In this document: in pieces, positions 3,401 to 45,769 of the stretch
How positions within the stretch are numbered: position 1 is the stretch's first letter
Layout of the letters: each line of letters starts with the position of its first letter
Origin: Lingula anatina
Lineage: Eukaryota > Animalia > Brachiopoda
Reading direction: 5' to 3'
DNA length: 64,000 nt
Assembly (NCBI GenBank): GCA_051362555.1
Contig: CM120645.1
Location: forward strand, 3,720,001 to 3,784,000
The notes under the pieces: generated by a model
The model's input: the letters and a program-made list of their open reading frames with translations, nothing else
Database searches by the model: none
Told to the model about the DNA's origin: nothing
Program-made: the position numbers and the translations under genes

Positions 3401-3868
3401 CTTATTTGGATATCTTTTACAGGTCTCTTATCAGCAAATGACAGTTATTACCCGCTATTCAAAGGACTTGTTTCCATTTTAAGAAACGGAATAATAATTA
3501 TCCACAACATTTGCTATTCATACATCATGAAAGGACTGAATGTAATTTTTAACATTCTGTAATGTGTGGCAACATTATTTTCAGTTCTGAATGAAGTAAA
3601 ACCAAAGCTATGTGAAAACATCACAGTTCATGTTCTCCTGGACATGTTGGATCTTTTCCTCCAAGAAGGCATTATAATTGACCATGAATATAAATGGGTG
3701 AAGCCAGAGCTCCCTAAACACCAAACCTCAACTACCAGGGTGGTATGTCCAGAGAAAACTGCAGTATTCTTGGACATTCTTAAAACTAAAGGGGGAAGGA
3801 CATATGATTTATTAAGGGGATGCTTCATTGAAAATGGACAAAGTGAGCTTGCTACCCTCCTCAAATAG
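449..3868 (+). CDS. MFHAS1-like: ROCO protein copy 1: LRR(~12)-ROC GTPase-COR-CARD; predicted join(449..3248,3585..3868), ~1027 aa
   Basis: 943-aa ORF with 23-aa LRRs, P-loop GETEAGKTS, DFGG (G3), GTHLD (ROCO-type G4), VSSKT (G5), COR-like region and CPHC motif. Donor GAAG|GTAAG after 3248 is phase-1 compatible with acceptor ttttcag|TTCTG at 3585. Confidence 0.9.
3585..3868 (+). CDS. Terminal CARD/death-fold exon (type B) of ROCO copy 1
   Basis: VLNEVKPKLCENITV..LLDMLDLFLQEGII..EYKWV...EKTAVFLDILKTKG..YDLLRGCF.ENGQSELATLLK fits the six-helix CARD pattern; acceptor context is conserved in all copies. Confidence 0.8.
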
Positions 3869-13082: not shown

Positions 13083-16000
13083 ATGGATTCCAGACAAGTA
13101 GCACAAAAGGAGAGACTTGATCTCTTACATAGTCTACAGTTGTCTCCGCAGTCCAAGACACCAGACACTGTGCTGGAATGGACTGAGCTTGATATAAGCC
13201 ATGCTGACATAGACAACCTACCAGAGTCCATTGACAGGTGTAGAAATGTTACGAGGATATATGCAATGAAGAACAGGTTATCTTCTTTACCACAGTCCAT
13301 ATCCAACCTCCCACACCTCACAGTGTTGGATCTCCATAACAATGCTTTCACTACATTCCCTATAGCACTGTGTGACTTGACTGACCTAGAAGAGCTGCAC
13401 CTGTCAAAAAACCAGCTATCTGACATACCAGTGGATATCAACAAGTTGAAGGTGCTCAAAATATGCCAGCTCAGTAACAATGCCTTCACTACATTCCCCA
13501 TAGCACTGTGTGGCTTGACTAACCTAGAGGAGCTGTTTCTGGGTGACAACCAGCTATCTGACATACCAGTGGATATCACCAGGTTGAAGGTGCTCAGAAT
13601 ATTCTGGCTCTCTAACAATGCCTTCACTACATTCCCCATAGCACTGTGTGACTTGACTGACCTAAAAGTGCTGAACCTGTCAAATAACAAGCTATCTGAC
13701 ATACCAGTGGATATCACCAGGTTGAATATGCTGAAAATATTTCAGCTCAGTAACAATGAATTCACTACATTCCCTATAGCACTGTGTGGTTTGACTAACC
13801 TAGAGGAGCTGGGTCTGGGTGACAACCAGCTATCTGACATACCAGTGGATATCACAAAGTTGAAGTTGCTCAGAATATTCAAGCTCCATAACAATGCCTT
13901 CACTACATTCCCCATAGCACTGTGTGGCTTGACTAACCTAGAGGAGCTGTATCTGGGTGACAACCAGCTATCTGATATACCAGTGGAAATCACCAGGTTG
14001 AAGGTGCTCAGAATATTCAAGCTCTACAACAATATGAATGCCTTCACTACATTCCCCATAGCACTGTGTGGCTTGACTAACCTAGAGGAGCTGCATCTGG
14101 GTGACAACTTGATATCTGATATACCAGAGGATATCACCAGGTTGAAGGTGCTCAGAATATTCAAGCTCCATAACAATGCCTTCACTACATTCCCCATAGC
14201 ACTGTGTGGCTTGACTAACCTAGAGGAGCTGTATCTGGGTGACAACCAGCTATCTGATATACCAGTGGATATCACCAGGTTGAAGGTGCTCAGAATATTC
14301 AAGCTCCATAACAATGCCTTCACTACATTCCCCACAGCACTGTGTGGTTTGACTAACTTAGAGGAGCTGCTCCTGTCAGAAAACCAGCTATCTGACATAC
14401 CAGTGGATATCACCAGGTTGAAGGTGCTCAGAATATTCTTGCTCAAAAGCAATGCCTTCACTACATTCCCCACAGCACTGTGTGACTTGACTGACCTAAA
14501 AGTGCTGAACCTGTCAAATAACCAGCTATCTGACATACCAGTGGATATCACCAGGTTGACAAAACTTGAAACACTTAACCTTCAAGGTAATAACATCACT
14601 CACCTGCCACATCAAATTAAGAATATGGAAAGTCTTAGACAACTAAATGTGAATGGCAATACTCTGGTACAACCACCTAAAGATACTGCCAACAGGGGAC
14701 TAGGTGCCATCAAGAGGTATTTTGAGGCATTAACTGACACCAAGGCAATCCAGTCAAGTAGAATACAGGTCAACTTACTTGGTGAAACAGAAGCAGGAAA
14801 AACTAGCATTTCACGCACACTGCAAAATGGAGAGTCTACCCTTACAAAGAAGGCAGACAGGACAAGAGTGGTGGAGCAGGGATTATGGGAGGCTCATGAA
14901 GATGAGACTGAGGTGAATATTGGCTTCAACATCAATGACTTTGGTGGACATGACATCTACAAAATAGGACATCCCATTTTTATTAACAAATGTGGCTTGG
15001 TTTTCATCACTTTTGATCTGTCTAAATATGACCCAGAAGACAAGGCTCATTACCAGCTCTACATTGGACACTGGATTGACAAGGTGCAAGCACAGATGCC
15101 AGAAATACAAATAGCTCTAATTGGAACTCATCTTGATGAGGTAGAAATCCAACATGTAGAAAACAAGTGTTCTGCGATAAACAAGCAGCATGAAGACCAC
15201 ATAAACAAAAAGAAGCAGTGGTATCTAGAGCAAAAGGAGAGCATTGAGAAGAGAATAAGAGAAACACCTGAAACCCAAGCATCTCTCCAACAGGCCTATC
15301 AAAGCAAATCAGATAAACTGCAGACCTTGTATGATCAAATGAAACCCATCCACAAGGATATTTTCAGAGTCAGTTCAAAAACCTGTGAAGGAATTAAAGA
15401 TCTGCGAGACTACCTCATTTCTTCTGCCAGGAGAAATGCTGAAGTTTTGCCAGGTATGTGGGTGGAAGCAGCCAAGAATATATGCACCAAGAAAATTGAA
15501 GGCTCTGAAAACACACTTGACTGGGAGATGATTGAAGACCTCATTCTGCAGAATGCACCTACATCTTGGAAAGAGAAGAATTCAAAGGAAGAAACAGAAA
15601 AAATGATATGTGACATCTTAAGTTTTCTTGCTCATCGTGGAGACATCATTTGGTTTGATAGATGTCCCTCACTGATGAAAGTAGTTTTCCATAAGCAAGA
15701 GGTTCTAGTTAATGTTCTCAAGGCAGTCCTGAGTCATGATCAAGAGGCCGTATCAGAGAAGCTACAGAAATCCATGAAGATTACTAAAACCAAAGCAAAT
15801 GCCATGCATGGAGACATTTTCACCAGAGGGATCATATCCAAAGAGGCTATGGGCTGCCTGTGTGAGCCTTTCAAATTATCAAGTACTGAAGTCAATGTCA
15901 TGATAGAAATGATGCAGAAACTGGAGCTGTGCTATCAAGTCCAGGAAGATGAATCCCTCCCATCCAATACCTCATACCACTTTCCATGGCTCCTCACTGA

Positions 16001-17310
16001 AGAAAGGCAACCTGAGCTAGACACCAAATGGCCCAGCAAGGTGGCCCCAGACACCACACAACTTACCCTGCAGGTTCTCTTTCCATACAAATGTCCAGAT
16101 GGCTTATATGAGAAATTTTCTGTTCGTCAGCACAAGCATCTTGGACTTATGAAGACCATGCGAATGGACTGGAAGGATGGGGTGTATGCAGAACTTAAGG
16201 GATGTAAAATGCAGGTGACACGAGGCCTACACCAGCTAAATCCTGATGCAGTCAGCCAAGTCCCAGACTGGTTTATCAGCATTGCTGTCCGTGGATCACA
16301 TCTCTTAGACATGTGGGGTGTTTTCAGACAAGGTCACAATGACCTCATGAACATCATTAAAGAGGACTGGCCTGGGCTGTCATATGACAAATATCTGATG
16401 TGTCCCCACTGTGTGAATGAGGACAGTACACAGCCAACCCTCTTCCCTGGAGAGATACTTGACCTAACCCTGGGGACAGCTTCCAAACCAAGACAGGAGA
16501 CATGTGTCAACACTGGTGTCTCCATTCCTGCAGACCTGGTCTACCCACCACACCTGGTCATGAGCTGGCAGGAAGGTAAACACAGCAGTATAATGGCATT
16601 GTTTTCTTTATTTTGTTTCTCTTTGCTCAACAATTTTGTCAAACTGCCCTCACCTAAACATGACATCCAAAAAGCATACAAACAAGAAGGTTTTACATTC
16701 ATTTGTTTTCATTAAGCGCTGCATTTTAGCTATAAAAACATAACCCCAATGATTGTCTTCAGACACTTGGTACTGTATTTTTTAAAAACTGTTCATGTAT
16801 TATCTCCATGTGCTTAGTTAACATGTAAATAACTGTTCTTACAGCAGTACGGATTTTTTCTGTTAAATCTTTTCTATTCTTCTACACTTGCGTCTGCCCA
16901 TGTGTCAAATCCTTATTTTAATATTGAAATCATCCACTAAAATTCAATTTTTACATAATGACAACAGATATTTTATCTGTCATGAATACCATTAAAAAAT
17001 GGCTGTTTTATTGTTTTCAGTTCTGAATAAAGAAAAACCAAGCCTTTGTGAAAAAATCACAGAACCCTGTCTCCTGGACATGTTAAATGAGTTTCTCCAA
17101 GAAGGCATCATCACCCTTCGTGAAGCTGAAATGGTGAGAGCAGAGCCTCCTCAACACCATGACCAAACCTCAACTACCAGGGTGGTATGTCCAGAGAAAA
17201 CTGCTGTCTTCCTGGATATTTTAACCAGGAAACCTGTCAGGGCACATAATACTCTGTGCCGATGTCTTCAGGAACAAGGACAGACTGATCTTCTTAAAAT
17301 GATCCAGTAA
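13083..17310 (+). CDS. MFHAS1-like: ROCO protein copy 2: LRR(~22)-ROC-COR-CARD; predicted join(13083..16575,17021..17310), ~1260 aa; alternative last exon 20344..20627
   Basis: 1210-aa ORF with the same ROC motifs; donor GAAG|GTAAA after 16575; phase-1 acceptors at 17021 and 20344. Confidence 0.9.
17021..17310 (+). CDS. CARD exon type A (ROCO copy 2)
   Basis: VLNKEKPSLCEKITEPCLLDMLNEFLQEGII...EKTAVFLDILTRKPVRAHNTLCRCLQEQGQTDLLKMIQ*; acceptor ttttcag. Confidence 0.8.
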
Positions 17311-17334
17311 GGGGACTTTCCTAGACTGATAATC

Positions 17335-17445
17335 CAACTTTTCTAAGTATTTACAAAATGAAAGGGGACAAGGCATTTAATTTATTAATGGAATACCTCA
17401 AGTAATATGGACAAAGTGAGCTTGTTTACCTCTTTAAATATAGCA
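17335..17445 (+). pseudogene. Remnant of CARD C-terminal half
   Basis: TFLSIYKMKGDKAFNLLMEYLK*YGQSELVYLFK resembles the type-B CARD end and is followed by type-B 3'UTR-like sequence; paralog at ~46678-46786. Confidence 0.65.
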
Positions 17446-17712
17446 AATGCAGTTCAACTGACTGTATGGACTCACCACCTGCAGCAGTCATGTCATGTAG
17501 TTGTATTCTCAACTGTTCAGTAGTCTTGGATGTGCTTAAAAGATTTGACCATTCTGGCCTGCAATATCGTTTTGACAGTCAAAAAAATTCAAATAGTTAA
17601 TCATTTGAACTAAGAAACTAGCCATGTACCTACAATTCACCGGTTGACTGGATGCCTAATAATGCATCAGACCAAGAGCCATTTAATCTATCAGAAGAGA
17701 AACGAAAAGCAG

Positions 17713-17905
17713 CAAGCATTTGAAGGTTTGACCAATTTACTGCAGTTAGTTCTGAACAATAATGACATCAAGTCCATCCCTACCACCTCCTTCAGCGGCC
17801 TGCCGTCTTCCTTGACATACTCAAAACCAGAGGAGATAAGGCATTTGTTTTATTGAGGAAATGTCTCACTGAAAATGGACAAAGTGAGCTTGTTTCCCTT
17901 TTAAT
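17713..17905 (+). pseudogene. Foreign 'typical'-class LRR fragment fused out of frame to a second CARD C-terminal remnant
   Basis: QAFEGLTNLLQLVLNNNDIKSIPTTSFSGLP, then in another frame AVFLDILKTRGDKAFVLLRKCLTENGQSELVSLL; paralog at ~47062-47255. Confidence 0.65.
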
Positions 17906-18237
17906 ACCTGTGGCAGTCATGTCCTGTAGTTGATGTTCCCAATGTTTATTAATTCCTACTGTAGTGAAACACTTAGGCCTAATTGGCTGTATACATCTAG
18001 CTTTTTGAAAAGAAAAACAAACAATTAATCTTGACCAGATAGACTAAAGAACTGTAATTCCTGGCAGCTGCTTTACCCAGTGACCATCATCAATCCATAT
18101 AATCCATAAGTGAGAATGAGGACATGAGAGCTGATCATCATCAATCTAGAGACCACCTTACATGGAAATGATGGAGCAAGAATGGATGAAGAGTGAACAT
18201 TGGCAGGGATTATAATGATAGCTGTGGTATGCTACTT

Positions 18238-18405
18238 GGTGGGAAGAGGAGAATGGTTGGAAGAGGAGCTAGGTGGGAAGAGGAGCGTAGTGGGAAGAGG
18301 AGCCTGGTGGGACGAGGAGCATGGTGGGAAGAGAAACATGGTGGGAAGAGGAGCGTGGTGGGAAGAGGAGCATGGTGGGAAGAGGAGGGTGGTGGGAAGA
18401 GGAGT
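18238..18405. repeat. 17-bp purine-rich minisatellite (ggtgggaagaggagcnt), ~10 copies
   Basis: Visible direct repeats; about 5 copies in the paralog at 47596-47680. Confidence 0.85.
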
Positions 18406-19369
18406 AAGGTATGCAGTTGGCCACCTACAGGTTAGAACATGTTATATGATAGGCCAATATTGTTTTATTAGATGGTGATGTCTGTCTAGTTTTTTATCAG
18501 TAATGGAGGGGGAGGATGGACAGCAGAACATGTGATATGATAGGCCAATATTGTTTTATTAGATGTTGATGTCTGTCTAGTTCTGTATCAGAAATGGAGA
18601 GGGAGGGTGGAGGAATACCTTACACTGAGATGCTGCTTAACAAATGTGAAAAGTTATTCTTAATTAGGAATGCACTATGCTGCATTAGATTAAACCCCCT
18701 TATATGAACTTATAATACTACAACAACAGCTATAGGTCTTTATTGCCAGCCCAATATTTTAGTGTCACAGAGAAATGGGGCTTTAAGGATGGAAAACCTT
18801 TTCTTGTAAATTTGAGCACACAAAACAGCTGGTGAAGTTTGTTGCTGGATTCTTAATAAAATGTTATAACTTCTACAGGTAAGACCACTTTAGCCAGGGA
18901 CTTGATGTCATATAATCCATCAGATGAGGAATGGGAAAGCTGGAACTCCAACCAGTTCCTGGAGTATCAGGGACATGTGAAACCCAAGTTCCAGTCATAT
19001 CCTGCCTACGACAAGATGATGTGGAGGATGACAATTCAAAACAGTCAGTGCAGTGACATGTGACAAACACCAGCCAGCTGCAGAGTCAGGTTTGTACAGT
19101 TATATATTTAAAAATTTGTTACCCCTTTTTACATTTTCAGAATTGGTAAAAAGTTGTGAAGACAATTTAAGCAAAATGTATCTGGCATGTTACCTGCCTG
19201 AATAAAGACCATACAAACCTTAGGGTGAAAAACTATTAGTAAGGTATACTCTATGGTGAGCCAAAATTACAGACTGACACCAATTTTATATTATACATCA
19301 AACTATAGAAAAAATTACTTTCATGTTATCCAGTGGAGTTAAAACATATTTGTTCTCTTCTTTCCACAG

Positions 19370-19631
19370 AACACAGTATCAACAGTTTATCTCTGCTAAG
19401 CAGTGCATCAGACAGTACTCCTCCCAACACACAGAGCACCAGCAGCACTGGACTGAACTCTCTGGAAACCTTCAACCCTAATCCTAAACTAGCCAATCAC
19501 AACGGGGCCCAGGACAGGTCAACAAGCCCAGTGGCCATGTTTCACCATCTGCTGCAGTGGTTTAACATCAGCTCCGTGCCTCACACCAGATGAACAGCAG
19601 ATATAGTTATCACATACAACAGACAATCCAG
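19370..19631 (+). other. Exon-like Ser/Thr-rich segment between the two CARD exons (phase-1 acceptor; stop at 19593)
   Basis: tttccacag|AACACAGT...CAATCCAG|gtatt; paralog at 48650-48911; a second exon-like segment at 18879-19089. Confidence 0.4.
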
Positions 19632-20343
19632 GTATTAATTATTTGGATGACTTTCTCTAAGCCATTTCAATGGCTAATTGTCTTTGTTTATAGATGCATA
19701 ACATTTTTGAAAATGCTTTTGAAACAGTGGCAGTATTAATCGTTACATGTACTGCTTGAAATTAATAAAACAGGGCAAGGTCTGTATTAAGAAAAATAAT
19801 TTATTTTACTGGAAAAAAACACCCTGCATTTTAATTATTATTTGGTAATTTGGACTTTTTTGTACAGAACAATCTTATTCAATTAATGCTTGCCTGCTTG
19901 CCTCCTTGTCACAGTACTCATGTGTCCCCGGACATAATTCTCATACCACATCTCACACATTGTCAACACAATAAAGTAATGCGTTTAATTATTTGTTGAT
20001 TATTTTCAAAATGGTCACTTAACATTATGATAATGTGGGGTAGTAATCCTTCACTTTACAGTTGTCTTTGGTAGATGTTTAGACAAGTGATTTAGACAAA
20101 TAATACACATTGTATTAGCTGGGTGGGTCCAATTTTGCTGGGCGTTCTTGCTTAAGTGCAATCAGTGGAATCAGCTTAATCAGCAAATGACAGTTATTAC
20201 CCCCTAGACAAAGGTTTTGTTTTCATTTTAAGTGATGGAGTAATATAAGTAATCATTCACAACATACATTTGCTATTTATACATCTAAAAGGACTGGATG
20301 TAATTTTTAACATTCTGTAATGTGTGGACAACATTATTTTCAG

Positions 20344-20627
20344 TTCTGAATGAAGTAAAACCAAAGCTTTGTGAAAACATCACAGTTCCTGGTCTCCTGG
20401 ATATGTTGGATGTTTTCCTCCAAGAAGGCATTATCACTGACCCAGAATATGAATGGGTGAAGCCAGAGCTCCCTCAACACCAAACCTCTACTACCAGGGT
20501 GGTATGTCCAGAGAAAACTGCAGTATTCTTATATATTCTCAAAACTAAAGGGAACAATGTATTTGATTTATTAAGGGAATGCCACAGTAAAAATGGACAA
20601 AGTGAGGTTGCTACCCTCCTTAAATAG
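20344..20627 (+). CDS. CARD exon type B (alternative terminal exon of ROCO copy 2)
   Basis: Open 284-nt frame, same acceptor and phase as 3585..3868. Confidence 0.7.
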
Positions 20628-21245
20628 AATAAGTGACCAAGAGAACTGACTCTATGGACTCACTCAGACTATGTGACTATGTGACATTTATTCAGTCAAT
20701 CACTTTGGCCACACTGATTTAAAATATCTCAGTCTAAATGGGAAATCTTTTTCACAAACAGTAATAGACTATCAGATTGTTCAAAACGCCAATTGTTGTA
20801 TAATTAAAGTATAGCAAAAATGTACACATGTAAATACACAGGTATAACCAAAGAACAGTCAAGTAGAATATATTGCATTAAAATAAATGTGCTTTTTATT
20901 GGAATTTATTTAGATAAATTAAGATTGTTGATGTAAATAATCACTGAGTCAAATCATTACTATGCCAGTGGCAGTACAATGTGGTAGTATTAAACAGAAT
21001 TTCATTGAATTAATAAATTATTTCTGAGACATTAAAATTTTAGGATTAAGTATCTTTTTAGTCCACCCAATACACCAACCACAAATGTTATGTGTAGTAT
21101 AACAATAAAACATAATAGTTTGCCTGCAGCAGTAGCTCATAGAGCAGGGTGACCAAACAAACCCAATGATTCACCTACCACAAAAGACTTAAGTGATTTC
21201 TCCTTAATTTTCCCTCATTTCAGTCAAGGTAGTTGTGGAAGCTGG

Positions 21246-22104
21246 CTATCCTCCGTTTCTCTCCTCCAGATAACACATCCTTCCAGTCACTCTCAGCTCC
21301 ACAGCCTGGAACACAACAACTCTTAATGGATAATGAATTAAAATTAATATATATTTTTTAAATTTTCAAATACATTTTGAATATTTCAGACAAAGTGTGA
21401 TATAACTAGTCTTAATGAAATAAAGTAATAAAGTGGTTTTAGATTATAAATGATTTAGATTTGCAGATATCATCCCTTAACATAATTTTGAAATGAGATA
21501 TCCACTAGCGAAGGAGACGGGGATTTGACTTTACTTAACTCTAAACTCCCAAGCCAATAAAATTAAAACAAGATATAGTTATTATAATTAAATGGAAACA
21601 TATCAGATGACATGATTAATTAGGATTAAGATGCGTTACTCCTGTGATGAACATAGATAATGTATATACATATGAAAATAGAAACTGTATCAATCAAAAA
21701 CTTTACATATTTTCTGCAGATATCTTAGTACCCTCTTCTCTCTGTATAATATGTTGCAGGTTTACACATCTGAATATATCTTTGAGTGGTGTTTTGGGTG
21801 GTGGTTTGAGTAGGCGACCATTATACACAGCCACAGACCACTTAGAATACAGAACAGGGAGCTCTTACCACAGCCATTACAGCCTGTTACATGTATCAGC
21901 AGGTGCATGTTGTGGTCCATCTGGAAATATCATGCTGAATATGAAAGCAACCTGCCTCTTTACCAAACAAAGCCACTCAGTAAATTTAAGTAAAACAAAA
22001 ATACAGTATGGCAGTTCTGAGCCCGGGGCGACTTTTAGAACAGCTAGGGAGCTCTTACCAAAGCCATTGGAGCCTGTCATTAGCAGGTCCATGTTGTGGT
22101 CCAT
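21246..22104 (-). pseudogene. ABCD2: ABCD1/2-like exon 8 (partial, 21246-21305), fused exon 6/7 (~21731-21920) and a duplicated exon-6 start (~22046-22104)
   Basis: [10 protein letters not shown]; degenerate Walker A (NGCGKSS / TGSNGFGKSS); KPPP and NLQHIIQREEG, with frameshifts. Confidence 0.75.
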
Positions 22105-24542
22105 CTGGAAATATGCTGATTTCTGCAACCTGTCTCTTTACCAAAAAAGCCACTCGGAAAATTAAAAGTTTGTCAGTTCTGGGGTGAACTTCATGTGTCG
22201 GACAGTGACAGGATGGTGACAACACAGACAGACAGAAAAATCAGAATATATAGAGAAACTTACAGTGACTGTATATAAAACCAGCATAACTTTGAAAAAA
22301 TGCCCCAATCAGGCTGATTTTCAAATTCTACCTGTATTTTATTATCAATTATCAGTTCCATAAGTTTGAAGAAAAAAAGACAAATGTTTTTTCACTTACT
22401 GTGTTTTCACTGAAAGTGCATGGCAATGGCATCAGTGACAACAGATGCAGATTACGGCTATATTGACAGACACATCTGTCTCTGCATAAAAAGTGTTGCT
22501 TTCCGAAGTATTAAAAAACAGTTCATTTAAAAAAGAAGCATTTTTTGGTTTTGCTTCATCCAGAACTGAAAATAATGTTGTCCACACATTACAGAATGTG
22601 CAATCAACTTAACTGTATGACATGGCATTAAGTATAAAACAGAAAAGCTGGTGGTTATAAGATTAGTTGCAACAAGAGGTGGCGTTCCCTGTTCAGGCGT
22701 AGCCAACTGCACTCAGCCAGAGTTCCCCCCTCCCACAGTTGGGTTGATTTTTGTAGACCAGTTGTGTCTATGGGAATGGAGCTTTAGAAACAGTCTATTT
22801 TTAATCTTCAGTATGAGTTAAGATACATTATACTTATTCTGTGACACATATTCAAGACTGCAGTAGAACGTGTTAAAAAGATAGTTTTCAATTTCGACCA
22901 ATTTATTGTCCTTGTTTCAGGCTGTTAGACATGGTTTCCAGTTGGTGTGTGTAAAAGAACCTTGATATAGAAGACCTAGATTATGCTCTCAAATGAATGT
23001 ACTCTTGCTTTCTTCTACAGCTCTCAGGCTCAACAGTTTTATCAGAAACAAGTTTTTTTCCTCTGTGCATGAACAAGTGTGCGCGTGTGCATGCACGTGG
23101 GTTCAACTACCATCCCAACCATGTCAAAGTAAAGAGGGTTGCAATCAACTGACTGTCTTTTGAAGTTGCCCATATAAATGTCAAAATTCCTAATATACTA
23201 TAATTATAGTATCACAACAGGTAAAAACAAATGACAGATAAATGTGCAGTGCTCAATATAATCCATTTCATGTAGTTAAAATACTGGTATGTTAATAAGC
23301 TAACTAATACTGATGGAACACTTAGACAATGGCAGGAGATTATAGATTATTCATTGAGATCTAGGGAGAAATTATATTACATCTGAACCACATTTTATTT
23401 ATCTATTTTTTTATGTGCATGTGTATAAGTATGCCTTCTGTGAAGAAGATGTTTTAAATGCCTTCTAACTTATACTCTGACTACAATGCTTTGTTATATA
23501 TTATGAAAATTCTGACTTTATTTCTGAAAACTAGTTTTAAAAATGTTTATCAAATATTAAAGAATTAAACTTATTCCACAGATTTATTTTTATAATACTG
23601 GTGCTCTCCTTGAATGAACAAAGTAAAAATTGAAAATGAAAATCAAATTTTATACTATAATATATATGATATCATACATGTATCACAATTCTATCAAAAA
23701 GACATAATTTAAATATAAATAATAATCATTAGTTTCAGGAGCATAAAGAATTGTTATATAAATACAGTTTATCATGAAAACTAGACAAAATAAATAAAAT
23801 GGTTTTATCCAGGAGTTGAACTTCTAGCTACTGTATACATTTGAAACACCCAATCAGAAATTCCTCATCCATTTAAAAGTTGACAGGTAAAAATATTGGA
23901 AATAAAAACAGCCTTACTTCAGAATAATCTTGTTCAAGATTTGTCATTTCATATCAACTATTACCAGAAAACTAAAGTATGACATGATAAAAAGCAGAAA
24001 AATTACAATTTTCTATAGCAGATTAAGGATCTGAAAACTTTTGGAGTTTTTATCTGTGCAGACTGCGTGGAACATCAAAAGGTATCACTTATTTTCATTT
24101 CTAAACAAAGAAAACATGTACAATAGTATTCACATCAATAGATACACTTTAACTATTACATTCATAAGTTATATTTCAATAGTTGAGGTTGTAACCAGAT
24201 TATAACACAACACTAGGTTAGTTCTTTTGTTATACATCATTGATTTTTGGAACAACAATTTCTCCACAAGTACACTACAACATACAGTTTTTTTTTAACA
24301 TTCTCTGCATTATGTATTTGGACATCTTTGGCACCTAATAATTAACAATTACACACAGGATTATACATCTCTTCCTACCATTTTTATACACTTATATCAT
24401 ATATATCATGTGCTATGAATAATTGGTAAGGATGCTCTTCTTGTTCAACTCTAGAGAACAATTCCTTGTCATCCCTTTCACACCTCTCCCTCTCCATCTC
24501 TTTTCGATCTCTAGCTTACACCAAAAAGGAAACAAAAGCAGA

Positions 24543-24576
<34 letters not shown>

Positions 24577-24688
24577 AGCTGACCATGGTGCATTATCAAC
24601 AGTGTCCCGTAAGAGCCCTGACCCCTTGGGTTGAATATACTGACCATAGTCAAGCTCAGTCCTAATATGCACAGTCAACAGTGTCCAA

Positions 24689-24920
24689 TCACAGCACTGA
24701 CGCCTCTGGCTGTATCAGATGACCATGGTCCAGTAACACAGAGTCCTCCCCCAAAATGGAGCACAACTCCTGTAGCCTCTGCTGCATCTTAGGTATACCT
24801 GCCAGCTGAGCCTCCAGTCCCTGCTTCTCCTCATTGAGAGACAGGCGTGTGGCAGTGTCCAGCTCCTCTAATCTCCAGCCTACCTCACCGTCAAACTGGA
24901 GCAAATGAGTGTGGAACTTC
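24689..24920 (-). pseudogene. ABCD2: ABCD1/2-like terminal exon 10 (open frame, orphan)
   Basis: ttttccag|[64 protein letters not shown]...*. Confidence 0.85.
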
Positions 24921-27871
24921 CTGGAAAATTGATAAATATTCAGTATGCTGCAGAGTTTACTAAGTGAAGATCTTTGGAAGTAATTGTGAATTGCAGAAAA
25001 ATGTGATTACTGAATACAAAATGAGTTTTGGAAGTATGGAAATAATTTAAGAAAGAAAAAAAATTGGGGACATTATGAAGTACAGTCAAGTATCTGTGAA
25101 CCAAGTACCAGACTCATTTTCAGTAGAGACATAAAAATCTGAGAGTAATGTAGAACATTTCCATTGCTCTTAAACCTGTTCTCTGTCCTAGCTTTACTCT
25201 TTCTAATGTCTTATGATACCTCTTTTCAGCAGTGACCAATTATTTTGACTCTAGTAAGTTAATCATGACCCCAGAACTATGTCACTTCAATGTACAAATT
25301 GATATTACTTCAATAACAGTAAGACAGTGTCATGCAGGGTCTTGTGACATATTTAATCTACCTCCTCCCTGTGTACACACACCAGTAGAGGTGAACTGGG
25401 AGAGATAGGGAGACCAAACTTTAAATAAATATCTCGCCAGAACGATACTTACAAGAGACTTCACATTTTAATGTTACAACATTTTCTCCAACCAAAAGCA
25501 AAGATTTTTTTCATAATAAAATCTCAATAGCAAATTATATTTTACATCAGGCTCACTGCTTTGAGGACAAGGCACTTTATATTATTATCTCTAGTGACAT
25601 ACCGGAAGGCAAAATCAACATCACATGATGTTATTTGCTGAGGCCATCTTTTTTTCTGCATTTTTAAGTGTGGCCAGAAGTTTGAGATGGCTATAAAATT
25701 CTATCATACTACCTGAGGTTGTTGACAGCTTGGACTGAGCAAGAACTTGTATTTCAAAGTAAGTCCATCTTGATGATAGATATTTCAAATTATTATAAAT
25801 ATTTAAATGGATAAACACCTAAATTGGGGATCTTTTTCTTTCATATCCATAAATGGGCATTTCTATTTAGTTGATTAAATTTGATAATATCAAAATAAGT
25901 TTTTTTTTTTAATTTGCTATTACCCTATGAGAAATTTTTGGGAGTATCTTCATTCTTTTTAATTGATAAAATTTTGCATAAAATCTAGACGCCTGGCTTG
26001 AGACAAAAATGTTCATTATATCACTTAATATTTTCATCCACTACAGTTACAGTGCAGGGCCAACTGAACCAGAAGTTTATAGAGCCACCTTCTGAGTATG
26101 TACCAGCAGCAGGTTTTGTGAGTCACCTTACAGCAGAGTAACTGTAACTTGTAAACAGGTAAGGTGGAAAGATTTGTAGGAAAATATTATATAATACTTT
26201 AAGTTATTCCATCTACAGCAGTAACAGAATACCATCAGCTCCACCAGTTGTTCATATAATGGTAGAGGCACCTTCTTAAAATTCCCATGGCCCTGCATCT
26301 TACATTTCTGTTAATTGTATTTATTTATTTTTTTTATCTCACATGCCAAGAGGTACATGGGACTTCACTGAAACATCTTTCATTAATTGTAAATAATTAT
26401 TAACCCTGGTTGTAATTTAATGCAATTTTACTTCTTTATTTCTATGGATTGAGTGTGTTTGCCATTCAATGTCAATTAAATGGATCTTGTTTATTTACAG
26501 GCAGTTGGTTTGAGGATGTTTTGTGTTATTTTGTGTATAATTTCATGTTAAAACATCCTATAGGTGACTTGAAGCATTACACAATTATCTGCTTAAAAAC
26601 ATTCAAACTGGTCATGAGCTAGCTAGTAGGACAGCTGAAGTGGACCCTATTGAAGCAGCTAACCAATAAACTGATATCTATACTTGTTCAAACTTGTCCT
26701 ATTTTATCATGCTTGATTTTCTATTTCTATGTTTTCTTCTGCTGGTCCTTTTTACTAATGGCTTTCAACAGTACAAATGTGTTTTTTTTCCAGAGAGCAT
26801 AATATTCTTCCTGTACCCTTGTCCAGATGCCTATCATACCATCCAAAACTAAAAACCTTAAGTCAGAAGGTATATAATGTTATTTATACTGAAACTTTTT
26901 TATCTTGACTACAAGATAACTGTAATGACATGAATCAATTTGAATCAACTGTTTAAACTCCTTTCAATTTACTCAATGTTATAATTTACTTCTAAACCTT
27001 CTTAGGACTTCAAAACTTCTATTTATGCTGAATACTTTTATGCCACAAATCAATTTTAACCAACTCTTTAAACAAAAAATACTTTCAAGTAATAAACTCA
27101 AAAATTCATTAGCTCTTCATGAATTACTTAGTTTTTATACCATTACAGTAATAAAACAATGTTTGAATAGTTTTGTGCAAGATAGACACCTGCTTTTTCT
27201 GTTGATTTTTGCTTGCCAGTAAAAACACTGAACATATTTTTTATTCTTAATGTTTTTTTTTTTTTTTTTTTTTCAGAAAACCTGTACTCTTGTCTATATC
27301 CACATTACATCCCATGAGGTAATAAAATTTACTGCCTTATACACAAATATCTAACTTTCACATTATGCAAAGTGGTTAAAATGCACCAAAGAAATATATG
27401 TTCACAACTTGTGCCAAATGAAGAGTACTTCTGTCACCAAAACATTTCTCTACATTTAAGGTATTTACAATATATTTCCAGCTTGTCACTGTCTACAGTA
27501 ACAGTCATACTATACAGTCATACTATACAGGGGAAATAATTAAATGTAATTATTGACAACAAATCCCACATATCAAACCACTGAGTATAGCTTTTTAAAC
27601 AAAAGAAGTACCTGCCACTTTTCTACCAATTCATCATTTTGTAATTTCAGATTACAAGAGGATTCAAGGACCAAAAATATGGTTTTAGGACTAAGTTGAT
27701 AATTTTCTTTAGTTACCTTTCTTATTTAAGCAAATTGTCTGTTACCAGGGGAAAAACTGCTAAAATTGGTGACAAACACATAATTACCAACTCAATCCTT
27801 CAAATATTATAACCTATGAACATAAGCATATAGAGCCGTGACACTTCTTCCTACTAATCCATTCCTGAGAC

Positions 27872-30800: not shown

Positions 30801-31208
30801 ATGTGCCTGTCTGTCAAAGAGTTCACTCAGATCTACTCATTGTATTAGCTGGCTTGGTCCAACCTTGCTAGGCATTCTTGCTAAAGTGCAATCAGTTGAA
30901 GCAACTTAATCAGCAAATGATTGTTAATTACCCCCTTGATGCTTAAGGAGGCGTGTTAGTCTATTAAGCTGATTCCACTGATTGCCCTTTAGTGAAAATA
31001 CCCATCAGAGTTGGACAAACCCAGGTAGTATGATGTGTGAATCTGAATGTAGTCAAAGGCCTTGTTTTAATTTAAGAAATTGAATAAGTAATCATCCACA
31101 AAAACTGTTATTAGTACATCAAGACAGGACTGAGTGAAATTTTTTACATTCTGTAATGTGTGGACAACATTATTTTCAGTTCTGGATGAAGTAAAACCAA
31201 AGCTTTGA
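27872..31208 (+). CDS. MFHAS1-like: ROCO protein copy 3: LRR(~12)-ROC-COR with truncated CARD; predicted join(27872..30641,31180..31208)
   Basis: 952-aa ORF; donor GAGG|GTAAG after 30641; the CARD exon has an in-frame TGA at 31206-31208. Confidence 0.85.
30825..31050. mobile_element. Old MITE-like inverted repeat in the COR-CARD intron
   Basis: ~85-bp imperfect arms (cattgtattagctggcttggtccaa...caatcagttgaagcaacttaat / attaagctgattccactgattg...gttggacaaacccaggtagtatgatg); also at 61012-61245. Confidence 0.6.
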
Positions 31209-31463
31209 CAAAATATCACAGTTCCTGGTCTCCTGGACGTGTTGAATCTTTTCCTCCAAGAAGGCATTATCACTGACCATGAATTTGAATGGGTGAAGCC
31301 AGAGCTCCCTCCACACCAAACCTCAGCTACCAGGGTGGTATGTCCAGAGGAAACTGCAGTATTCTTGGACATTCTCAAAACTAAAGGGAAAAGGGCATTT
31401 GATTTATTAAGGGAATGCTTCATTGCAAATGGACAAAGTGAGCTTGCTAACCTTCTTAAATAG
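31180..31463 (+). pseudogene. CARD exon type B with premature stop (TGT>TGA, 10th codon)
   Basis: AAG CTT TGA CAA versus AAG CT(T/A) TGT GAA in paralogs; the rest of the frame is open to 31463. Confidence 0.8.
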
Positions 31464-39000: not shown

Positions 39001-39061
39001 CATTCAATTAATTTTACCTGTGAACATAAACATATAGAGCAGTGACACTTTCTACTGCTCC

Positions 39062-42000
39062 ATGGCTTACAGACAAGAAGTGCAGGAAAAAAAACTTGAT
39101 CTCTTGCATAGGCTACAGTTGTCTCCATGGTTCAAGACACCAGACATTGTGCTGAAATGTACTGAGTTTAATATAGACAATGCTGGTATAGACAACCTAC
39201 CAGAGTCCATTGACAGGTGCACAAATGTTGTGGAGATATCTGCAGGATTTAACAGTTTATTTTCTTTACCACAGTCCATATCCAACCTACCACACCTTAA
39301 AGTGTTGAGCCTATTCCAGAATGCCTTCACTACATTCCCCATAGTACTGTGTGGCCTGACTAACCTAGAGATGCTGAGCCTGAGTTACAACCAGCTATCT
39401 GAAATACCAGTGGAAATCACCAGGTTGAAGTTGCTTAAAATATTCAGGCTCAATAACAATGCCTTCACTACATTCCCAATAGCACTGTGTGGCTTGACTA
39501 ACTTAGAGGAGCTACACCTGAGTGGCAACAAGCTATCAGACATACCAGTGGACATCACCAGGTTGAAGGTGCTAAGAATATTCCGGCTCCATAACAATGC
39601 CTTCACTAACTTCCCCATAGCACTGTGTGGCTTGACTAACCTAGAAGAGATGTGCCTGACTCGTAACCAGTTACCTGACATAACAGTGGATATCATCAGG
39701 ATGGAGGCCCTCAGAATATTCTGGTTCAATTACAATGCCTTCCTCACATTCCCTATAGGACTGTGTGGTTCAACTAACCTAGAGGTGCTGAACCTGTCAC
39801 ACAACCAGCTATCTGACATGCCAGTGGATATCAGCAGGTTGAAAGTGCTCAGAATGTTCTATCTCTCTAACAATGCCTTCACTACATTCCCCATAGCACT
39901 GTGTGGCTTGACTAACCTAGAGGTGCTGGACTTGTCACACAGCAAGATATCTCACATACCAGTGGATATCAGTAGGTTGACAAAACTTAAGACACTTAAT
40001 TTGTCAAACAATAACATCACTCACCTGCCACCACAAATGAAGAATATGGAAAGTCTTAGACAACTACATGTGGATGGTAATCCTCTGGTACAACCACCTA
40101 AACATATTATCAAAAGGGGTCTAGGCGCCATCAAAAGATATTTTGAGGCATTAACTGTCAGTGAGGCAATCCAATCAAGTAGAATACAGGTCAACTTACT
40201 TGGTGAAACAGAAGCAGGAAAAACTAGCATTTCACGTACACTGCAAAATGGAGAGTCTACCCTTACAAAGATGGCAGACAGGACAAGAGTAGTAGAACAA
40301 GGAACATGGGAGACTGACCAAGATATTGGCTTCAATATCAATGACTTTGGTGGACATGATGTTTACAAAATAGGACATCCCATTTTTATCTCCAACTGTG
40401 GCTTGGTTTTCATCACTTTCGATCTGTCTAAATATGACCCAGAAGACAAGGCTCAGTACCAGCTCTACATTGGACACTGGATTGACAAGGTGCAAGCACA
40501 GATGCCAGGGATACAAATAGCTCTTATTGGAACTCATCTTGATGAGGTAGAAATCCAACATATAGAAAACAAGTGTGTTGCAATAAAGAAGCAATATGAA
40601 GACCACATAAACAAAAAGAAGCAGTGGTATCTATTACAAAAGGAGATCATTGAGAAGAGAATAAGAGAAACACCTGATACTGAAGCATCTCTCCGCCAGG
40701 CCTACCAAAGCAAATCAGATAAACTGCAGACCTTGTATGATAAAATGAAACCCATCCACAAGCACATTTTCAGAGTTAGTTCAAAAACATGTGAAGGAAT
40801 TAAAGAGTTGGGAGACTACCTCATTTATTTTGCCAGGATAAATGCCGAAGTTTTGCCAGGTATGTGGTTAGCAGCAGCCAAGAATATCTGCAACAAGAAA
40901 ATTGAAGGCTCTGAAAACACACTTGGCTGGGAGATGATTGAAGACCTCATTCTGCAAAATGCACCTACATCATGGAAAGAGCAGAACACAAAGGAAGAAA
41001 CAGAAAGAATGATATGTGACATCTTAAGTTTCCTTGCTCATCGTGGAGACATCATTTGGTTTGATAAATGTCCCTCACTGATGAAAGTAGTTTTCCACAA
41101 GCAAGAGGTTCTAGTGAATGTTCTGAAGGCAGTCCTCAGTCATGATCAAGAGGCTGTGTCAGAGAAGCTCCAGAAGTCCATGAAGATTACTGAAACCAAA
41201 GCAATTAACATACATGAAGACATCTTCACCAGAGGCATAATTTCCAAAGAAGCTATGAGCTGCCTGTGTGAGCCTTTTAAATTGTCAAGCACTGAAGTTG
41301 ATGTCATGATAGAAATGATGCAGAAACTGGAGCTGTGCTATCAAGTCCAGGAACATGAATCCCTTCCATCCAATACCTCATTCCACTTTCCATGGCTCCT
41401 CACTGAAGAAAGACAATCTGAGCTAGACACCAAATGGCCCAGCAAGGTTCCCCCAGACACCACACAACTTACCCTGCAGGTTCTCTTTCCATACAAATGT
41501 CCAGATGGCTTATATGAGAAATTTTCTGTTCGTCAGCACAAGCATCTTGGACTCATGAAGACCATGCGAATGGACTGGAAGGATGGGGTGTATGCAGAAC
41601 TTGAGGGATGCAAAATGCAGCTGACACGAGGGCAAAACCAGCTAAATCCTGATGCAGTCAGCCAAAACCCAGACTGGGTTATCAGCATTGCTGTCCGTGG
41701 ATCACATCTCTCAGACATGTGGGATGTTCTCACACAAGGCCACAGTGACCTCATGGACATCATTAAAGAGGACTGGCCTGGGCTGTCATATGACAAGTAC
41801 CTGGTGTGTCCCCACTGTGTGAGAGAGGACAGTGAGCATCCAACGCTCTTCCCTGGAGAGATACTTGACCTAACCCTGGGGACAGCTTCCAAACCAAGAC
41901 ATGTGACATGTGTCAATACTGGTGTCTCTATTCCTGCAGACCTGGTCTACCCACCTCACCTGGTCATGAGCTGGCAGGAAGGTAAACACAGCAGTATAAT

Positions 42001-42718
42001 GGCATTGTTCTCTTTCTTTTGTTTCTCTTTGCTCAACAATATTGTCAAACTGCCCTCACCTAAACATGACATCCAAAAAGCGTACAAACAAGAAGGTTTT
42101 ACATTCATCTGTTTTCATTAAGCACTGCATTTTAGCTTTAAAACATAACCCAATGATTGTCTTCCCATAATTGGTACTGTATTTTTTAAAAAATGTTCAT
42201 ATATTATCTCCATGTACTTAGTTAACATGTAAATAACTGTTCTTACAGCAGTAAGGCTTTTTTTCTGTGCAATCTTTTGTATTCTTCTACACTCGCCTCT
42301 GCCCATGTGTCCAATCTTTATTTTAATATTGAAATTATCCACTAAAATTCAATTTTTACATAACAACAACAGATAATTTTTTTTTTGTCATGAATATCAT
42401 TTAAAAGTAGCTGTTTAATTTTTTTCAGTTCTGAATAAAGAAAAACCAAGCCTTTGTGAAAAAATCACAGAACCCTGTCTCCTGGACATGTTAAATGAGT
42501 TCCTCCAAGAAGGCATCATCACCCTTCGTGAAGCTGAAATGGTGAGAGCAGAGCCTCCTCAACACCATGACCAAACCTCAACTACCAGGGTGGTATGTCC
42601 AGAGAAAACTGCTGTCTTCCTGGACATTTTAACCAGGAAACCTGTCAGGGCACATAATACTCTTTGTCGATGTCTTCAGGAACAAGGACAGACTGATCTT
42701 CTTAGATTGATCCAGTAA
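39062..42718 (+). CDS. MFHAS1-like: ROCO protein copy 4: LRR(~14)-ROC-COR-CARD; predicted join(39062..41981,42429..42718); alternative last exon 49608..49891
   Basis: 1019-aa ORF with ROC motifs; donor after 41981; phase-1 acceptors at 42429 and 49608. Confidence 0.9.
42429..42718 (+). CDS. CARD exon type A (ROCO copy 4)
   Basis: Nearly identical to 17021..17310. Confidence 0.8.
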
Positions 42719-43769
42719 TAGTCCCTTACCTACACTGGTCTATCGTTTCATTGTGTGAAAAGCTCCAGTGGCCAGACAATTTTCACGGTGCCATGAAGAT
42801 AAACAGTTAAAAAATACCCACAATAAATTCGGCAACCGTAGGATGCGCCAACATATAGATAATTGCGATGGTATTTATGCCGAAATATCAAAATGAATAG
42901 CCCTGCCGTTCCAATCGGCAATCCTCGACTGTCGAGTGCGGAGACATCCGAGTAGTTCCAAGTGCTGCCGTTCTACCCTTTAAACCAATCAAAGCAACGG
43001 AAAGGGGTCACGGGATCACTTGACCTACATCTGATCGATGTAAACAATGAATTTCCATGCGAAGCTTGCACATTTAATAGATGATTCCCATGCGTTGTTT
43101 CAATAAAAAAAATAAGTCCTAGGTTTTTAAAATCGATGTCAATATCGAGAGAAAGATTTAAATAGTTGGAGAATACGTGTATTTTAGGTGTATTTATATA
43201 ATTGGCTAAATGATGACGTGAATTCACGGTTAAAAGGTATGTAGTATTAGCCCGTACACTGTGCATTGTACCACTTCTACAATCGCACACAGGTCACACT
43301 ATTACCCAATATAGTGATCATATAATCACTTGCATGTATGTTCAGTAATGTTACATTGAATGCATTTTAAATTCTCAGGTGTGTTAAAGCGCATATAATC
43401 ACTTAAAATTATTTGACTCAATATTTTACACTGATAAATAGTACAAACTAGGTATTCATGTGGGCTGTCTGTTTATGAAGCTGGCAAGTGCTCAAAAAAT
43501 TATTTCAAAAATATGTAAGTGCTTCACTAGGTAGAATAATTGAGTTTTTTATGTTCAAGTTTCTCTTTAAATTGCAGAGGTACAATTTTTAAAGAAGTTT
43601 GATTATTGCAATTAATTGCAGCATTGTCTAGTAACAACAGCATATTAAAAGAAATAACAGCTCACATTTAACAAGGCTTTTATGATATATATATATAATA
43701 TATTTTTCCAACTTAATTATTTAAACTATCAAATTATAACTTTCTACATTTCTTGTGCATATCTGAAAA

Positions 43770-44245
43770 AGATTAATAAAATGCCATTCGAACAGGTACA
43801 CTTAAAATTTTGCAAATGGATTTTAGGTCTAAGAAAGCAGGCTAGCAATACCATTTTTAGAGCTGAGCTTGGCAGTTACCCTATTATTTCAACTATAACT
43901 AAACCTGTCTAAAGATTAGTCTTAGACTGGAACAACTACTAGTAGATAATAGAACTGTAAATCAGGTGCACAGTCTTGAGCAAGATACAAAGGGAAACAC
44001 ATGGACAGAATCTATCCGAAGATAACAACCCACCAAAGAAATTATATCAAATAGAAAACCTTTTAGAAATATTGAACATAAAAATCGAAAAACACTTCTG
44101 GCAGGAATTAAATAGCTCAATCTCAAACAAATTAAGGGCATACAAAACAATAAAAAAATATTATGAATGTGAAAATTACATCAAAATGAGTGTCTCCCCA
44201 TTAAATATCAAAACACTTGCAAAAATTAGACTAAGTGACCACAAC
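43770..44245 (+). mobile_element. Degenerate non-LTR retrotransposon ORF2 C-terminal fragment (RTE-X-like)
   Basis: EQVHLKFCKWILG..QASN....AELGSYP and NKLRAYKTIK....ENYI....LAKIRLSDH are typical post-RT LINE motifs; interrupted by stops and frameshifts. Confidence 0.65.
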
Positions 44246-45572
44246 TTTTTTTTTACAAATAGTGCAGATAGCTGGCAGCACTGGTGACTTTGATATACCA
44301 AACCCTGAGACTGATCTCAATTTCTTGGGAGATGGACCTTGTATTTTGGGAAGAGTACAACTGGTTGATGGTTCTGTAAAAGAAGCAAAATAACATTTTA
44401 CTTTTCATACCATATACTTTTCATACCATAGTGCATTATAATGTGCAGATACTGACTACTACAGAAACAACTTTAACGTTGGATAAATATTCAAGTGGGT
44501 GTAACAAAGATATGTAAAAATAGTAATGTGCTCAAAATTCAGTTATAAAAACAGTTGCCTTGTATAAATAAAAAGACAACATAGAATACATATTTCAAAT
44601 AAAAACATCTGGATACCTGGATACACAAATGATTTAGCAAATACAGAGCAGACCGCAAATACTTGATTGTTGCAAGTGCAATTGTATATACAATCACTAT
44701 GATTTAACTATAAAATAAATGAATAATAATGAAATAAGATAAGACAGTCGCATGTGAGTTTATCACATGATTGACACCAAGTGATATTGACAACTATAAT
44801 TACATATATCCTCATGATTCAAAGGGCATAGGGTAGGTATAGGATTCAATGTATTAGTGGCTCAGCATGTTCCTTTTATGAGGAACTAAGCTGTAACAAA
44901 CTATAGGCAAATGAGACCCACTGTTTAATATTTGTTGCAACTAAGACAAATTAATCAAGCTTAAAGATCTAATAATTAATAGGGAGCCCACTAGCAGTCT
45001 GCTGCCCAGATTAATATCAGATGCCTTGAATAAAAGTGACTCTTCTCTTTAAACTGAACTATATCTACCAGTCACCCTACTCATTATCATTATTCCTTAA
45101 TTGATACTGTTTGTCAACGTATTTCTTTATTGATACTATTTATGTATACCTTTACTGATTCTATTCATAAGGGAAAGTTACAAGGATTATTCCTAACAGT
45201 CCTAATTAAATTAATCACATTGCAGCTTGTTCTGTGAAAAGCTATCCTACTTTTTCTGGCTCACAAGATACAGTAAATATTCCCTAAAATACATTCTCAT
45301 TGAAGTTGGGCTTAGCCTATACATATTTATATTCACTAATGGTTGCACATGTGCAGCAATGTATTGGGGGGGAGGAACACTCCACAAATAACATAAAAGA
45401 TTCTACCATGATACTTAAGCCTCTGTCTCATAAAATCCCACCATAACATTTGTTTGTATATCTTGTTGTGTAAAGCCTTACATTATTTTGTGTAAATGCA
45501 ATGCTAATTATGATAAATATGGATGAACTAATAATGAGATGTTAATCATGGCAAGAACATACAGCTAGCTTA

Positions 45573-45769
45573 GGCTGTATTCCCAGAGCTTTTAGATTGA
45601 TCTGTCCCCGCGGGGAGTCTAACTAGATTACTGTCAGATAATCCGGCTTAAATGTCCATCCCGCCTACTACAAGCTGTAAGGGGGTATTTAACTTTCGTG
45701 TCCGCCCCACTGACAGCTGTTTAGCGTGAACCCCTAAAGTAGATCTATCTAATCTCTGGAAATGAGGTC
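45573..45769. mobile_element. Tourist-like MITE nested in the TIR element
   Basis: Reverse complement of 31699-31911; TTA TSD. Confidence 0.75.

Follow-up and report, generated by a model that had tools for sequence, protein, structure and literature searches.

Two open CARD exons behind one Roco sensor in a Lingula anatina gene array, and the possible capture of a paralog's 3' end

Homologous 3' coding exons that arose by tandem duplication can substitute for one another through alternative poly(A) use, and the C-terminal substitutions that result are supported by transcripts and mostly ancient, at least in the part of the survey drawn on here (PMC8373072). Brown algal ROCO genes, which have been proposed to encode immune receptors, are diversified by LRR exon shuffling and by alternative splicing, according to the portion of that study used here (PMC11378527). 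Among paralogous RIG-I-like receptors of lophotrochozoans, death-fold effectors have been gained, lost, and replaced, and the sections of the source consulted include exonization and pseudoexonization among these changes (PMC8998645). Among the titles listed in our literature searches, none concerned the arrangement described below, in which two CARD exons follow one Roco sensor; a survey of Lingula immune genes may cover the family.

A tandem Roco array with two types of CARD exon

The window that we analyzed is a 64 kb stretch of L. anatina DNA that contains five LRR-ROC-COR genes in tandem, and the closest matches to these genes are L. anatina MFHAS1-like proteins. By analogy with other Roco and CARD proteins, the LRRs would sense ligand, ROC-COR would be a GTP-dependent switch that binds and hydrolyzes GTP and dimerizes through COR, and the CARD would recruit a CARD partner. 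The P-loop GETEAGKT is present in all five copies. Copy 2 matched Pfam Roc (44 bits; cut-off 27) and COR-B (29.4 bits; cut-off 27), its COR-A score of 27.9 bits fell under the cut-off of 35.3, and the Roc and COR scores of copy 5 were similar. No Pfam kinase family matched copy 2 or copy 5. On these domain predictions, the array genes have the Roco layout of a ROC GTPase domain followed by COR, and copies 2 and 5 have the MFHAS1/MASL1-like form of it (LRR-ROC-COR without a kinase). To our knowledge, human MFHAS1 has no CARD. The sensor and CARD exons are:

13083..16575, + strand: copy 2 LRR-ROC-COR coding exon (ORF; Pfam LRR_8, Roc, COR-B), ending at a phase-1 GT donor
39062..41981, + strand: copy 4 LRR-ROC-COR exon (ORF) with a phase-1 donor
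17021..17310, + strand: CARD exon A2, open and constrained, probably the terminal exon that copy 2 uses (Pfam CARD; conservation; RefSeq likeness)
20344..20627, + strand: CARD exon B2, open, of putative use, probably an original terminal exon that was displaced (Pfam CARD)
42429..42718, + strand: CARD exon A4, open (Pfam CARD)
49608..49891, + strand: CARD exon B4, open, 1 nt apart from B2 (Pfam CARD)
3585..3868, + strand: sole CARD exon of copy 1, B type, open (Pfam CARD)
31180..31463, + strand: sole CARD exon of copy 3, B type, interrupted by a stop (translation)
61369..61652, + strand: sole CARD exon of copy 5, B type, open (Pfam CARD)

An earlier note had claimed that behind the COR donor of copies 2 and 4 lie two open CARD exons in the same phase, types A and B, and this is what we found. 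The COR donors (WQE-G followed directly by GT, at 16575 in copy 2 and 41981 in copy 4) are in phase 1, and each of A2, B2, A4, and B4 is preceded by a TTTTCAG acceptor, begins in the same phase (G+TT, giving Val), and is open to its stop codon. Copies 1, 3, and 5 had been described as carrying type B only; none of them has an A exon, but the B exon of copy 3 (B3) contains an in-frame TGA at codon 9, so an open sole B exon is limited to copies 1 and 5. Dead CARD exons therefore do occur in the array.

All four exons of copies 2 and 4 scored above the Pfam CARD cut-off of 23.9 bits (A2, 37.7; A4, 38.1; B2, 32.2; B4, 32.0). Types A and B are 69–70% identical in DNA and 56–58% identical in protein, and the C-terminal halves of A2 and B2 share just 18% identity. 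The predicted structures of A2 and B2 each contain six helices (pLDDT about 81), and the Foldseek top rows for the predicted CARDs were the CARDs of Apaf-1, caspase-9, RIP2, and CARD8, with TM scores of no more than 0.72 and none at E <= 0.001. Structure prediction gave no separation of A from B, and a six-helix CARD was predicted as well for B2 as for A.

The interval between the exons and its probable origin

The sequence that surrounds and separates A2 and B2 is made up as follows:

16576..17020, + strand: copy 2 intron up to exon A, similar over its initial ~130 nt to the 5' part of B-type introns
17340..17503, + strand: decayed 3' half of a B-like CARD with its 3' flank, containing a stop
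17716..17802, + strand: LRIG3-like LRR fragment matching P0036 residues 49-77, which runs into the start of the following half CARD
17800..17904, + strand: second relic of a half CARD, of the C-terminal type found in P0001/P0002
18122..19962, + strand: degraded LRIG3-like remnants that carry stops and frameshifts (P0036 residues 715-979), at 18122-18244, 18879-19089, 19370-19602, and 19900-19962
20104..20343, + strand: B-type intron, 3' portion, to which the introns of copies 1, 3, and 5 are homologous

The spacer from A to B is thus a composite of ~3.4 kb that combines decayed LRIG3-like pieces with two half-CARD relics. The flanks of B continue those of the B-only copies, with B-type intron homology resuming near 20104. 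Spliced joints within this spacer, at 19051>19367 and 19603>19899 (+ strand), were considered as Roco UTR or linker exons and ruled out; they match P0036, and the pieces in the window are broken.

Relatives of both exon types are found outside the window. Of 31 protein matches, 28 are from L. anatina, and 18 of these 28 have a precomputed CARD match. At the same junction, COR leads into an A-type exon in one RefSeq model (P0008, XP_013412426.1) and into a B-type exon in another (P0009, XP_013398004.1), each with a single CARD, and A2 is 94% identical to the CARD of P0008. No isoform with the second CARD type was found among the 10 RefSeq proteins that we looked up. A B-type CARD fused to a non-COR protein was also sought; all seven matches in the B2 search carry COR, a weak result drawn from 28 candidates. 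The CARDs of P0001 (XP_023930624.1) and P0002 are A-like in front (8–9 of 9 sites) and B-like behind (11–12 of 16), and the CARD of P0035 is mixed in the opposite way (9 of 9 and 14 of 16 sites). Within the array, copies 1 and 2 are 97.5–100% identical across ~1.6 kb of ROC-COR, and their nearest CARD exons are of types B and A, respectively; by sequence comparison, identity among the copies is mosaic.

With A and B only ~70% identical, each serving as the sole CARD in RefSeq paralogs, and with LRIG3-like debris inside a composite spacer, the sequence does not fit an origin by local tandem exon duplication. This layout looks more like the captured end of a paralog than like duplication of an exon cassette. 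We propose that the 3' end of a paralog, comprising exon A and adjoining debris, recombined in ahead of the original exon B, whereupon A would have become the working terminal exon and B would have been displaced. Copies 2 and 4 would then have two open CARD exons, most likely because recombination inserted a paralog end before B. On balance we favor this account, in which B is a stranded leftover that is rarely or never used; that B is little used, and how and in which direction the swap took place, are what we infer. It is also possible that A was lost from an ancestral gene that carried both exons. Better supported is the view that paralogs exchange CARD tails, and even half CARDs, by recombination. 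Diversity of output would then come from paralogs with different CARD tails and not from splicing inside one gene.

Evidence bearing on the use of exons A and B

Exons A2 and A4 differ at 6 of 290 positions, compared with 34 of 443 in the intron and 77 of 878 in the 3' flank (Fisher p 8e-4 and 3e-5), and their dN/dS is 0.14, on four synonymous and two nonsynonymous changes. As judged from these comparisons, exon A is constrained by purifying selection. Three indirect lines of evidence make it likely that A serves as a terminal exon: this constraint, a RefSeq model that shares the junction, and coverage by RNA reads.

Three further features bear on how the B exons and the flank of A4 are read:

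19270..25770, no strand assigned: block nearly identical to 48550-55020, containing B2 (250 nt bin identity)
22544..22599, − strand: inverted 56 nt copy of the B splice acceptor, with a second at 51808-51863; copies 1, 3, and 5 lack it at the corresponding position
42719..46649, no strand assigned: 3.9 kb insertion at the A4 stop codon, its ends inverted and its TAA target duplicated

The 3.9 kb insertion, which displaces the 3' flank of A4, is likely a nonautonomous DNA transposon; its four ORFs gave no Pfam match over the cut-off. The ~6.5 kb block, introns included, is 98.8–100% identical in every 250 nt bin and more than 99% identical overall, and it probably reflects recent conversion or duplication. 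Because B2 and B4 lie inside this block, in which the introns are equally alike, their match is uninformative about selection and they do not count as independent survivals. We therefore rejected the B2/B4 identity as a sign of selection.

Other comparisons of B2 are equivocal. Its dN/dS against B1, B3, and B5 is 0.61–0.98, like that of live and dead B exons, but this measure has no power because there are only ~15 private changes per exon. These changes are 4 synonymous and 11 nonsynonymous in B2 and 3 and 9 in the sole exon B1, which is no difference. B2 alters an Asp and a hydrophobic residue that are kept in 19 of 19 other aligned rows, and B1 and B5 likewise change conserved residues. Simulated neutral decay left B2 open with its acceptor intact in 12–21% of cases, and its persistence is thus mildly unexpected under neutrality (P 0.12–0.21).

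The RNA reads came from four low-depth runs, out of nine under the species label, on animals other than the one sequenced. In run X7, the bin of exon A had ~37 read-equivalents, that of its 3' flank ~23, and the 3' flank of B2 ~1, a comparison of little power in that the sole exon B1 likewise had only ~3; the other three runs barely covered exon A or B. The RNA weakly favors A over B. Taking the B2/B4 identity, the dN/dS, and the coverage of the B2 3' flank together, the indirect evidence on B is neutral or slightly unfavorable. With regard to the assignment of short reads to junctions, the B-only paralogs are 93–96% alike within 75 nt of the COR-CARD junction.

The earlier note had proposed that A and B are alternative last exons, a choice that might connect one receptor to different downstream partners. 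In our form of this reading, both would be used after the swap, through splicing and polyadenylation, and one Roco sensor would receive either CARD, with the difference largest in the C-terminal helices. The sequence permits both junctions, since A and B are open and in the same phase with intact acceptors, but the 15 joints listed, out of 47, include neither COR>A nor COR>B. Read-through from A to B could occur, because no AATAAA lies behind A2 before 18855 (the first ATTAAA is at 18689); AATAAA/ATTAAA hexamers follow B at 20803-21109. The B exons have no indels among themselves and several in their flanks, which together with the mildly unexpected survival of B2 under neutrality and the divergence of the two C-terminal halves would suit a second functional tail. 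The 40 nt acceptor region of B2 is nearly the same as those of the sole exons B1 and B3, which counts against B being stranded. On the other side, A is nearer to COR and has the more T-rich acceptor (12 T in 20 nt, versus 9 for B), the best run placed ~1 read in the B2 flank, the RefSeq proteins that we looked up supplied no isoform pair, the B2/B4 identity reflects homogenization, and the spacer is gene debris and not a clean exon duplication. We consider dual use rather unlikely. Similarly tentative is a combinatorial Roco family in which LRR arrays, CARD tails, and half CARDs reassort by recombination and the captured tail of copies 2 and 4 is an alternative last exon, so that a single receptor could switch its CARD output.

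Exon B might instead never be spliced to COR and persist, or be renewed by gene conversion, as a reservoir, from which crossover or deletion could rejoin B, whole or in half, to ROC-COR, so that novel pairings of sensor and CARD arise within the population. The array does contain conversion-like tracts, the family includes CARDs of mixed halves, and a half-CARD relic of P0001/P0002 type lies straight behind A, all consistent with this idea, but the RefSeq mosaics are gene models only, and we think it improbable. That the assembly placed one B block twice would suit the bin-by-bin identity but is very improbable, as the two copies differ by scattered substitutions and two 15–16 nt indels, are bounded on both sides by sequence that is ~90% alike, and would account for one A+B case, not both.

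Comparison with known systems

If capture of a paralog end is correct, copies 2 and 4 already have a substitute CARD tail, behind which the earlier tail is still intact. Should B be used, it would be a young alternative last exon whose birth could be studied directly. Should it be unused, the locus would offer a clear snapshot of recombination-driven domain grafting, and it would caution against taking an open exon in matching phase, inside a converting array, as evidence of splicing.

The MFHAS1-like RefSeq Roco proteins resemble the array in having LRR-ROC-COR, a C-terminal CARD, and the same COR-to-CARD junction; unlike copies 2 and 4, they have one CARD type each, and they are known from gene models alone. 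As in the described tandem-duplication events, a pair of homologous 3' coding exons downstream of a single gene body could yield two C termini, whereas here, relative to what the cited part of that survey describes, the array is young and unstable, debris of another gene lies between the exons, and use of B is putative (PMC8373072). The lophotrochozoan RIG-I-like receptors are a separate family with N-terminal effectors, and half-CARD swapping was not found in the part of that source consulted (PMC8998645). The brown algal ROCO genes, as presented in the portion of the study used, form an expanded LRR-ROC-COR family diversified by recombination, as the array does, but they vary the LRR input, with one exon per repeat, whereas the array keeps its LRRs together in a single large exon and swaps the CARD output (PMC11378527). 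Diversification of invertebrate immune receptors has mostly been discussed for the ligand-binding end; in this array, it is the output end that is swapped.

Two CARD exons behind one COR donor

Self-comparison and ORF listing place five tandem genes in the window, each with one large LRR-ROC-COR exon. With the ROC-COR region of copy 2 as query, 31 protein matches were obtained, 28 of which are Lingula anatina models, almost all labelled MFHAS1-like (top identity 89%), and 18 of these 28 contain a CARD. These matches suggest Lingula or a near relative as the origin of the window. The LRR region differs strongly in length between the five copies (depending on the copy, the P-loop falls between residues 336 and 670 of the frame), and that of copy 5 contains internal block duplications.

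LRR regions and CARD exons (window positions, forward strand)
446-1450: LRR region, copy 1
3585-3868: B1, sole CARD exon, copy 1
13080-14780: LRR region, copy 2
17021-17310: A2, A-type CARD exon, copy 2
20344-20627: B2, B-type CARD exon, copy 2
27869-28870: LRR region, copy 3
31180-31463: B3, sole CARD exon, copy 3
39038-40200: LRR region, copy 4
42429-42718: A4, A-type CARD exon, copy 4
49608-49891: B4, B-type CARD exon, copy 4
57014-59020: LRR region, copy 5
61369-61652: B5, sole CARD exon, copy 5

The two-CARD-exon anatomy of copies 2 and 4 is real. As the earlier note had claimed, two open CARD exons of the same phase follow the COR donor in each (phase 1, like the donors at 16575 and 41981, and each after TTTTCAG), and the two types are distinct in sequence, with about 70% of bases common to both. 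All four exons score above the Pfam CARD cut-off; A2 and B2 are predicted to form six-helix bundles for which the nearest solved folds in Foldseek are CARDs, with no match at E <= 0.001. The claim that copies 1, 3 and 5 have type B only holds in that type B is their sole CARD exon, but in copy 3 that exon is interrupted by an in-frame stop (codon 9). Because of this stop, copy 3, whose LRR-ROC-COR exon is open, would encode a Roco protein without a CARD or be a pseudogene. In copies 2 and 4 the reading frame of COR runs on without a stop through 46 intronic codons (16576-16715 and 41982-42121; 135 of 140 bases alike), and the RefSeq models P0006 and P0015 end likewise by read-through into the COR-CARD intron, so a CARD-less form of the A-bearing copies may be possible.

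Use of exons A and B

Exon A behaves as a working exon. A2 and A4 differ at 6 of 290 bases (4 synonymous and 2 non-synonymous differences). Their surroundings diverge more: the upstream intron differs at 34 of 443 bases, the 3' flank at 77 of 878, and the last part of the COR exon at 70 of 1000 (Fisher p of roughly 1e-3 or lower). Local conversion could be another source of the low divergence of A. The RefSeq model P0008 (XP_013412426.1) carries an A-type CARD that is 94% identical to A2, with the same COR junction. In X7, the best-covered of four RNA runs compared (from other animals), about 37 read-equivalents fell in the 664-nt bin containing A and about 23 in the following bin. The protein made by copies 2 and 4 most likely ends in A. 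A 3.9-kb element (42719-46649) lies exactly at the A4 stop codon, leaving the A frame intact and displacing the 3' flank; it has long subterminal inverted repeats, no transposase match, and a duplicated TAA target, which we take to be reminiscent of PIF/Harbinger elements.

The earlier note proposed that A and B are alternatively spliced last exons in copies 2 and 4, which we consider possible but rather doubtful. B2 and B4 differ at 1 base and count as one observation, because both sit within a block of about 6.5 kb that, across introns and intergenic DNA alike, is 98.8-100% identical in each 250-nt bin. The dN/dS of B2 against other B exons is 0.61-0.98, and the ratios of synonymous to non-synonymous private changes (B2 4:11, sole exons B1 3:9 and B5 5:8, dead B3 2:10) are so alike that this test does not separate live from dead B exons. 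B2 alters an Asp and a hydrophobic residue conserved in 19 of 19 other aligned rows, and conserved positions are altered in B1 and B5 as well. When neutral decay was simulated with substitution and indel rates taken from the flanks, B stayed open in just 21% of runs since the split of copies 2 and 4 and in 12% over the whole branch. Openness beyond neutral expectation counts modestly in favor of B and of alternative splicing; a conversion event with a working B gene as donor could have reset the decay clock.

On the other side, the B2 3' flank had only about 1 read-equivalent in X7; about 13 fell in the bin with most of B2, which also covers an LRIG-like piece. These RNA data have little power, because the sole exon B1 had about 3 read-equivalents in X7 and the other three runs barely reach either exon; no COR-to-CARD joint was among the joints listed (15 of 47). 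Use of B would need the A acceptor, which is nearer and more T-rich, to be skipped, and transcription to continue beyond the A 3' end. About 1.4 kb behind A2 lacks a canonical poly(A) hexamer, which leaves such transcription possible. Only behind the two A-bearing copies, at 22544-22599 and 51808-51863, a 56-nt stretch repeats the B splice acceptor in inverted orientation (54/56 to B2, 55/56 to B3); it could pair with the acceptor if transcripts extended 2 kb beyond B.

Origin of the A-to-B interval

The interval between A and B is not a plain intron.

Features of the interval
17340-17438: relic 3' half of a B-like CARD
17800-17904: relic 3' half of a B-like CARD, P0001/P0002 back-half type, behind A2 (counterpart behind A4)
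17716-19962 and 47065-49226: decayed partial LRIG3-like gene copy inside the array

It contains five fragments of an LRIG3-like gene (P0036); stops or frameshifts interrupt several of them, and one fragment merges straight into the second half CARD with a short overlap. Because the spliced + strand reads 19051>19367 and 19603>19899 match the course of the LRIG3-like protein, they most likely come from an intact gene elsewhere. Reads are also plentiful on intergenic sequence (4617-5283, 7976-10631, and 21304-21735; minus strand in stranded runs); part of them are spliced (CT..AC ends), and because most fit only partially, they probably derive from repeats or from a gene located elsewhere.

Intron homology with the B-only copies stops near 16700 and restarts near 20104, and 3' of B2 the sequence carries on with the repeat unit found in copies 1, 3, and 5. 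The simplest history would be that a B-type gene gained about 3.4 kb with the 3' end of a paralog, which put A first for the donor; the B-only copies might instead descend from an A+B ancestor that lost the segment.

There is good support for recombination in this Roco family. Across about 1.6 kb of ROC-COR, copies 1 and 2 show 97.5-100% identity, which drops to about 91% in the final 280 nt, and despite this near-identity, copy 1 continues into B and copy 2 into A. The C-terminal halves of 16 CARDs form two clades with full support, on 29 columns only. P0001 and P0002 are A-like in front and B-like behind and P0035 is the opposite (RefSeq gene models, DNA unread), with the switch point within a segment conserved between types. 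All four combinations of front and back halves are thus present across the family, pointing to probable recombination inside the CARD exon. We lean toward B as the original exon, stranded after tail replacement, as a likelier account than alternative splicing.

Proposed working and comparison with known systems

By analogy with Roco and CARD proteins in general, the LRRs would bind a ligand and ROC-COR would act as a GTP-dependent switch or dimerize, while recruitment of a CARD-bearing adaptor or caspase would fall to the CARD. Architecture and expansion suggest an immune role for the array genes.

The available portions of PMC6321704, PMC8195603, and PMC9334734 contain no description of the Lingula Roco-CARD family. 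None of the papers listed by our literature searches deals with the two-CARD-exon arrangement; the main Lingula immune survey (PMID 29278680) or the supplements of papers may include the family. A known class of C-terminal swap arises from duplicated 3' exons that are selected by poly(A) use (PMC8373072, in part), and effector-domain grafting is described for lophotrochozoan RLRs in the available text of PMC8998645. According to the accessible part of PMC11378527, brown algal Roco genes also diversified through shuffling and splicing, but there the variable part is the LRR exons.
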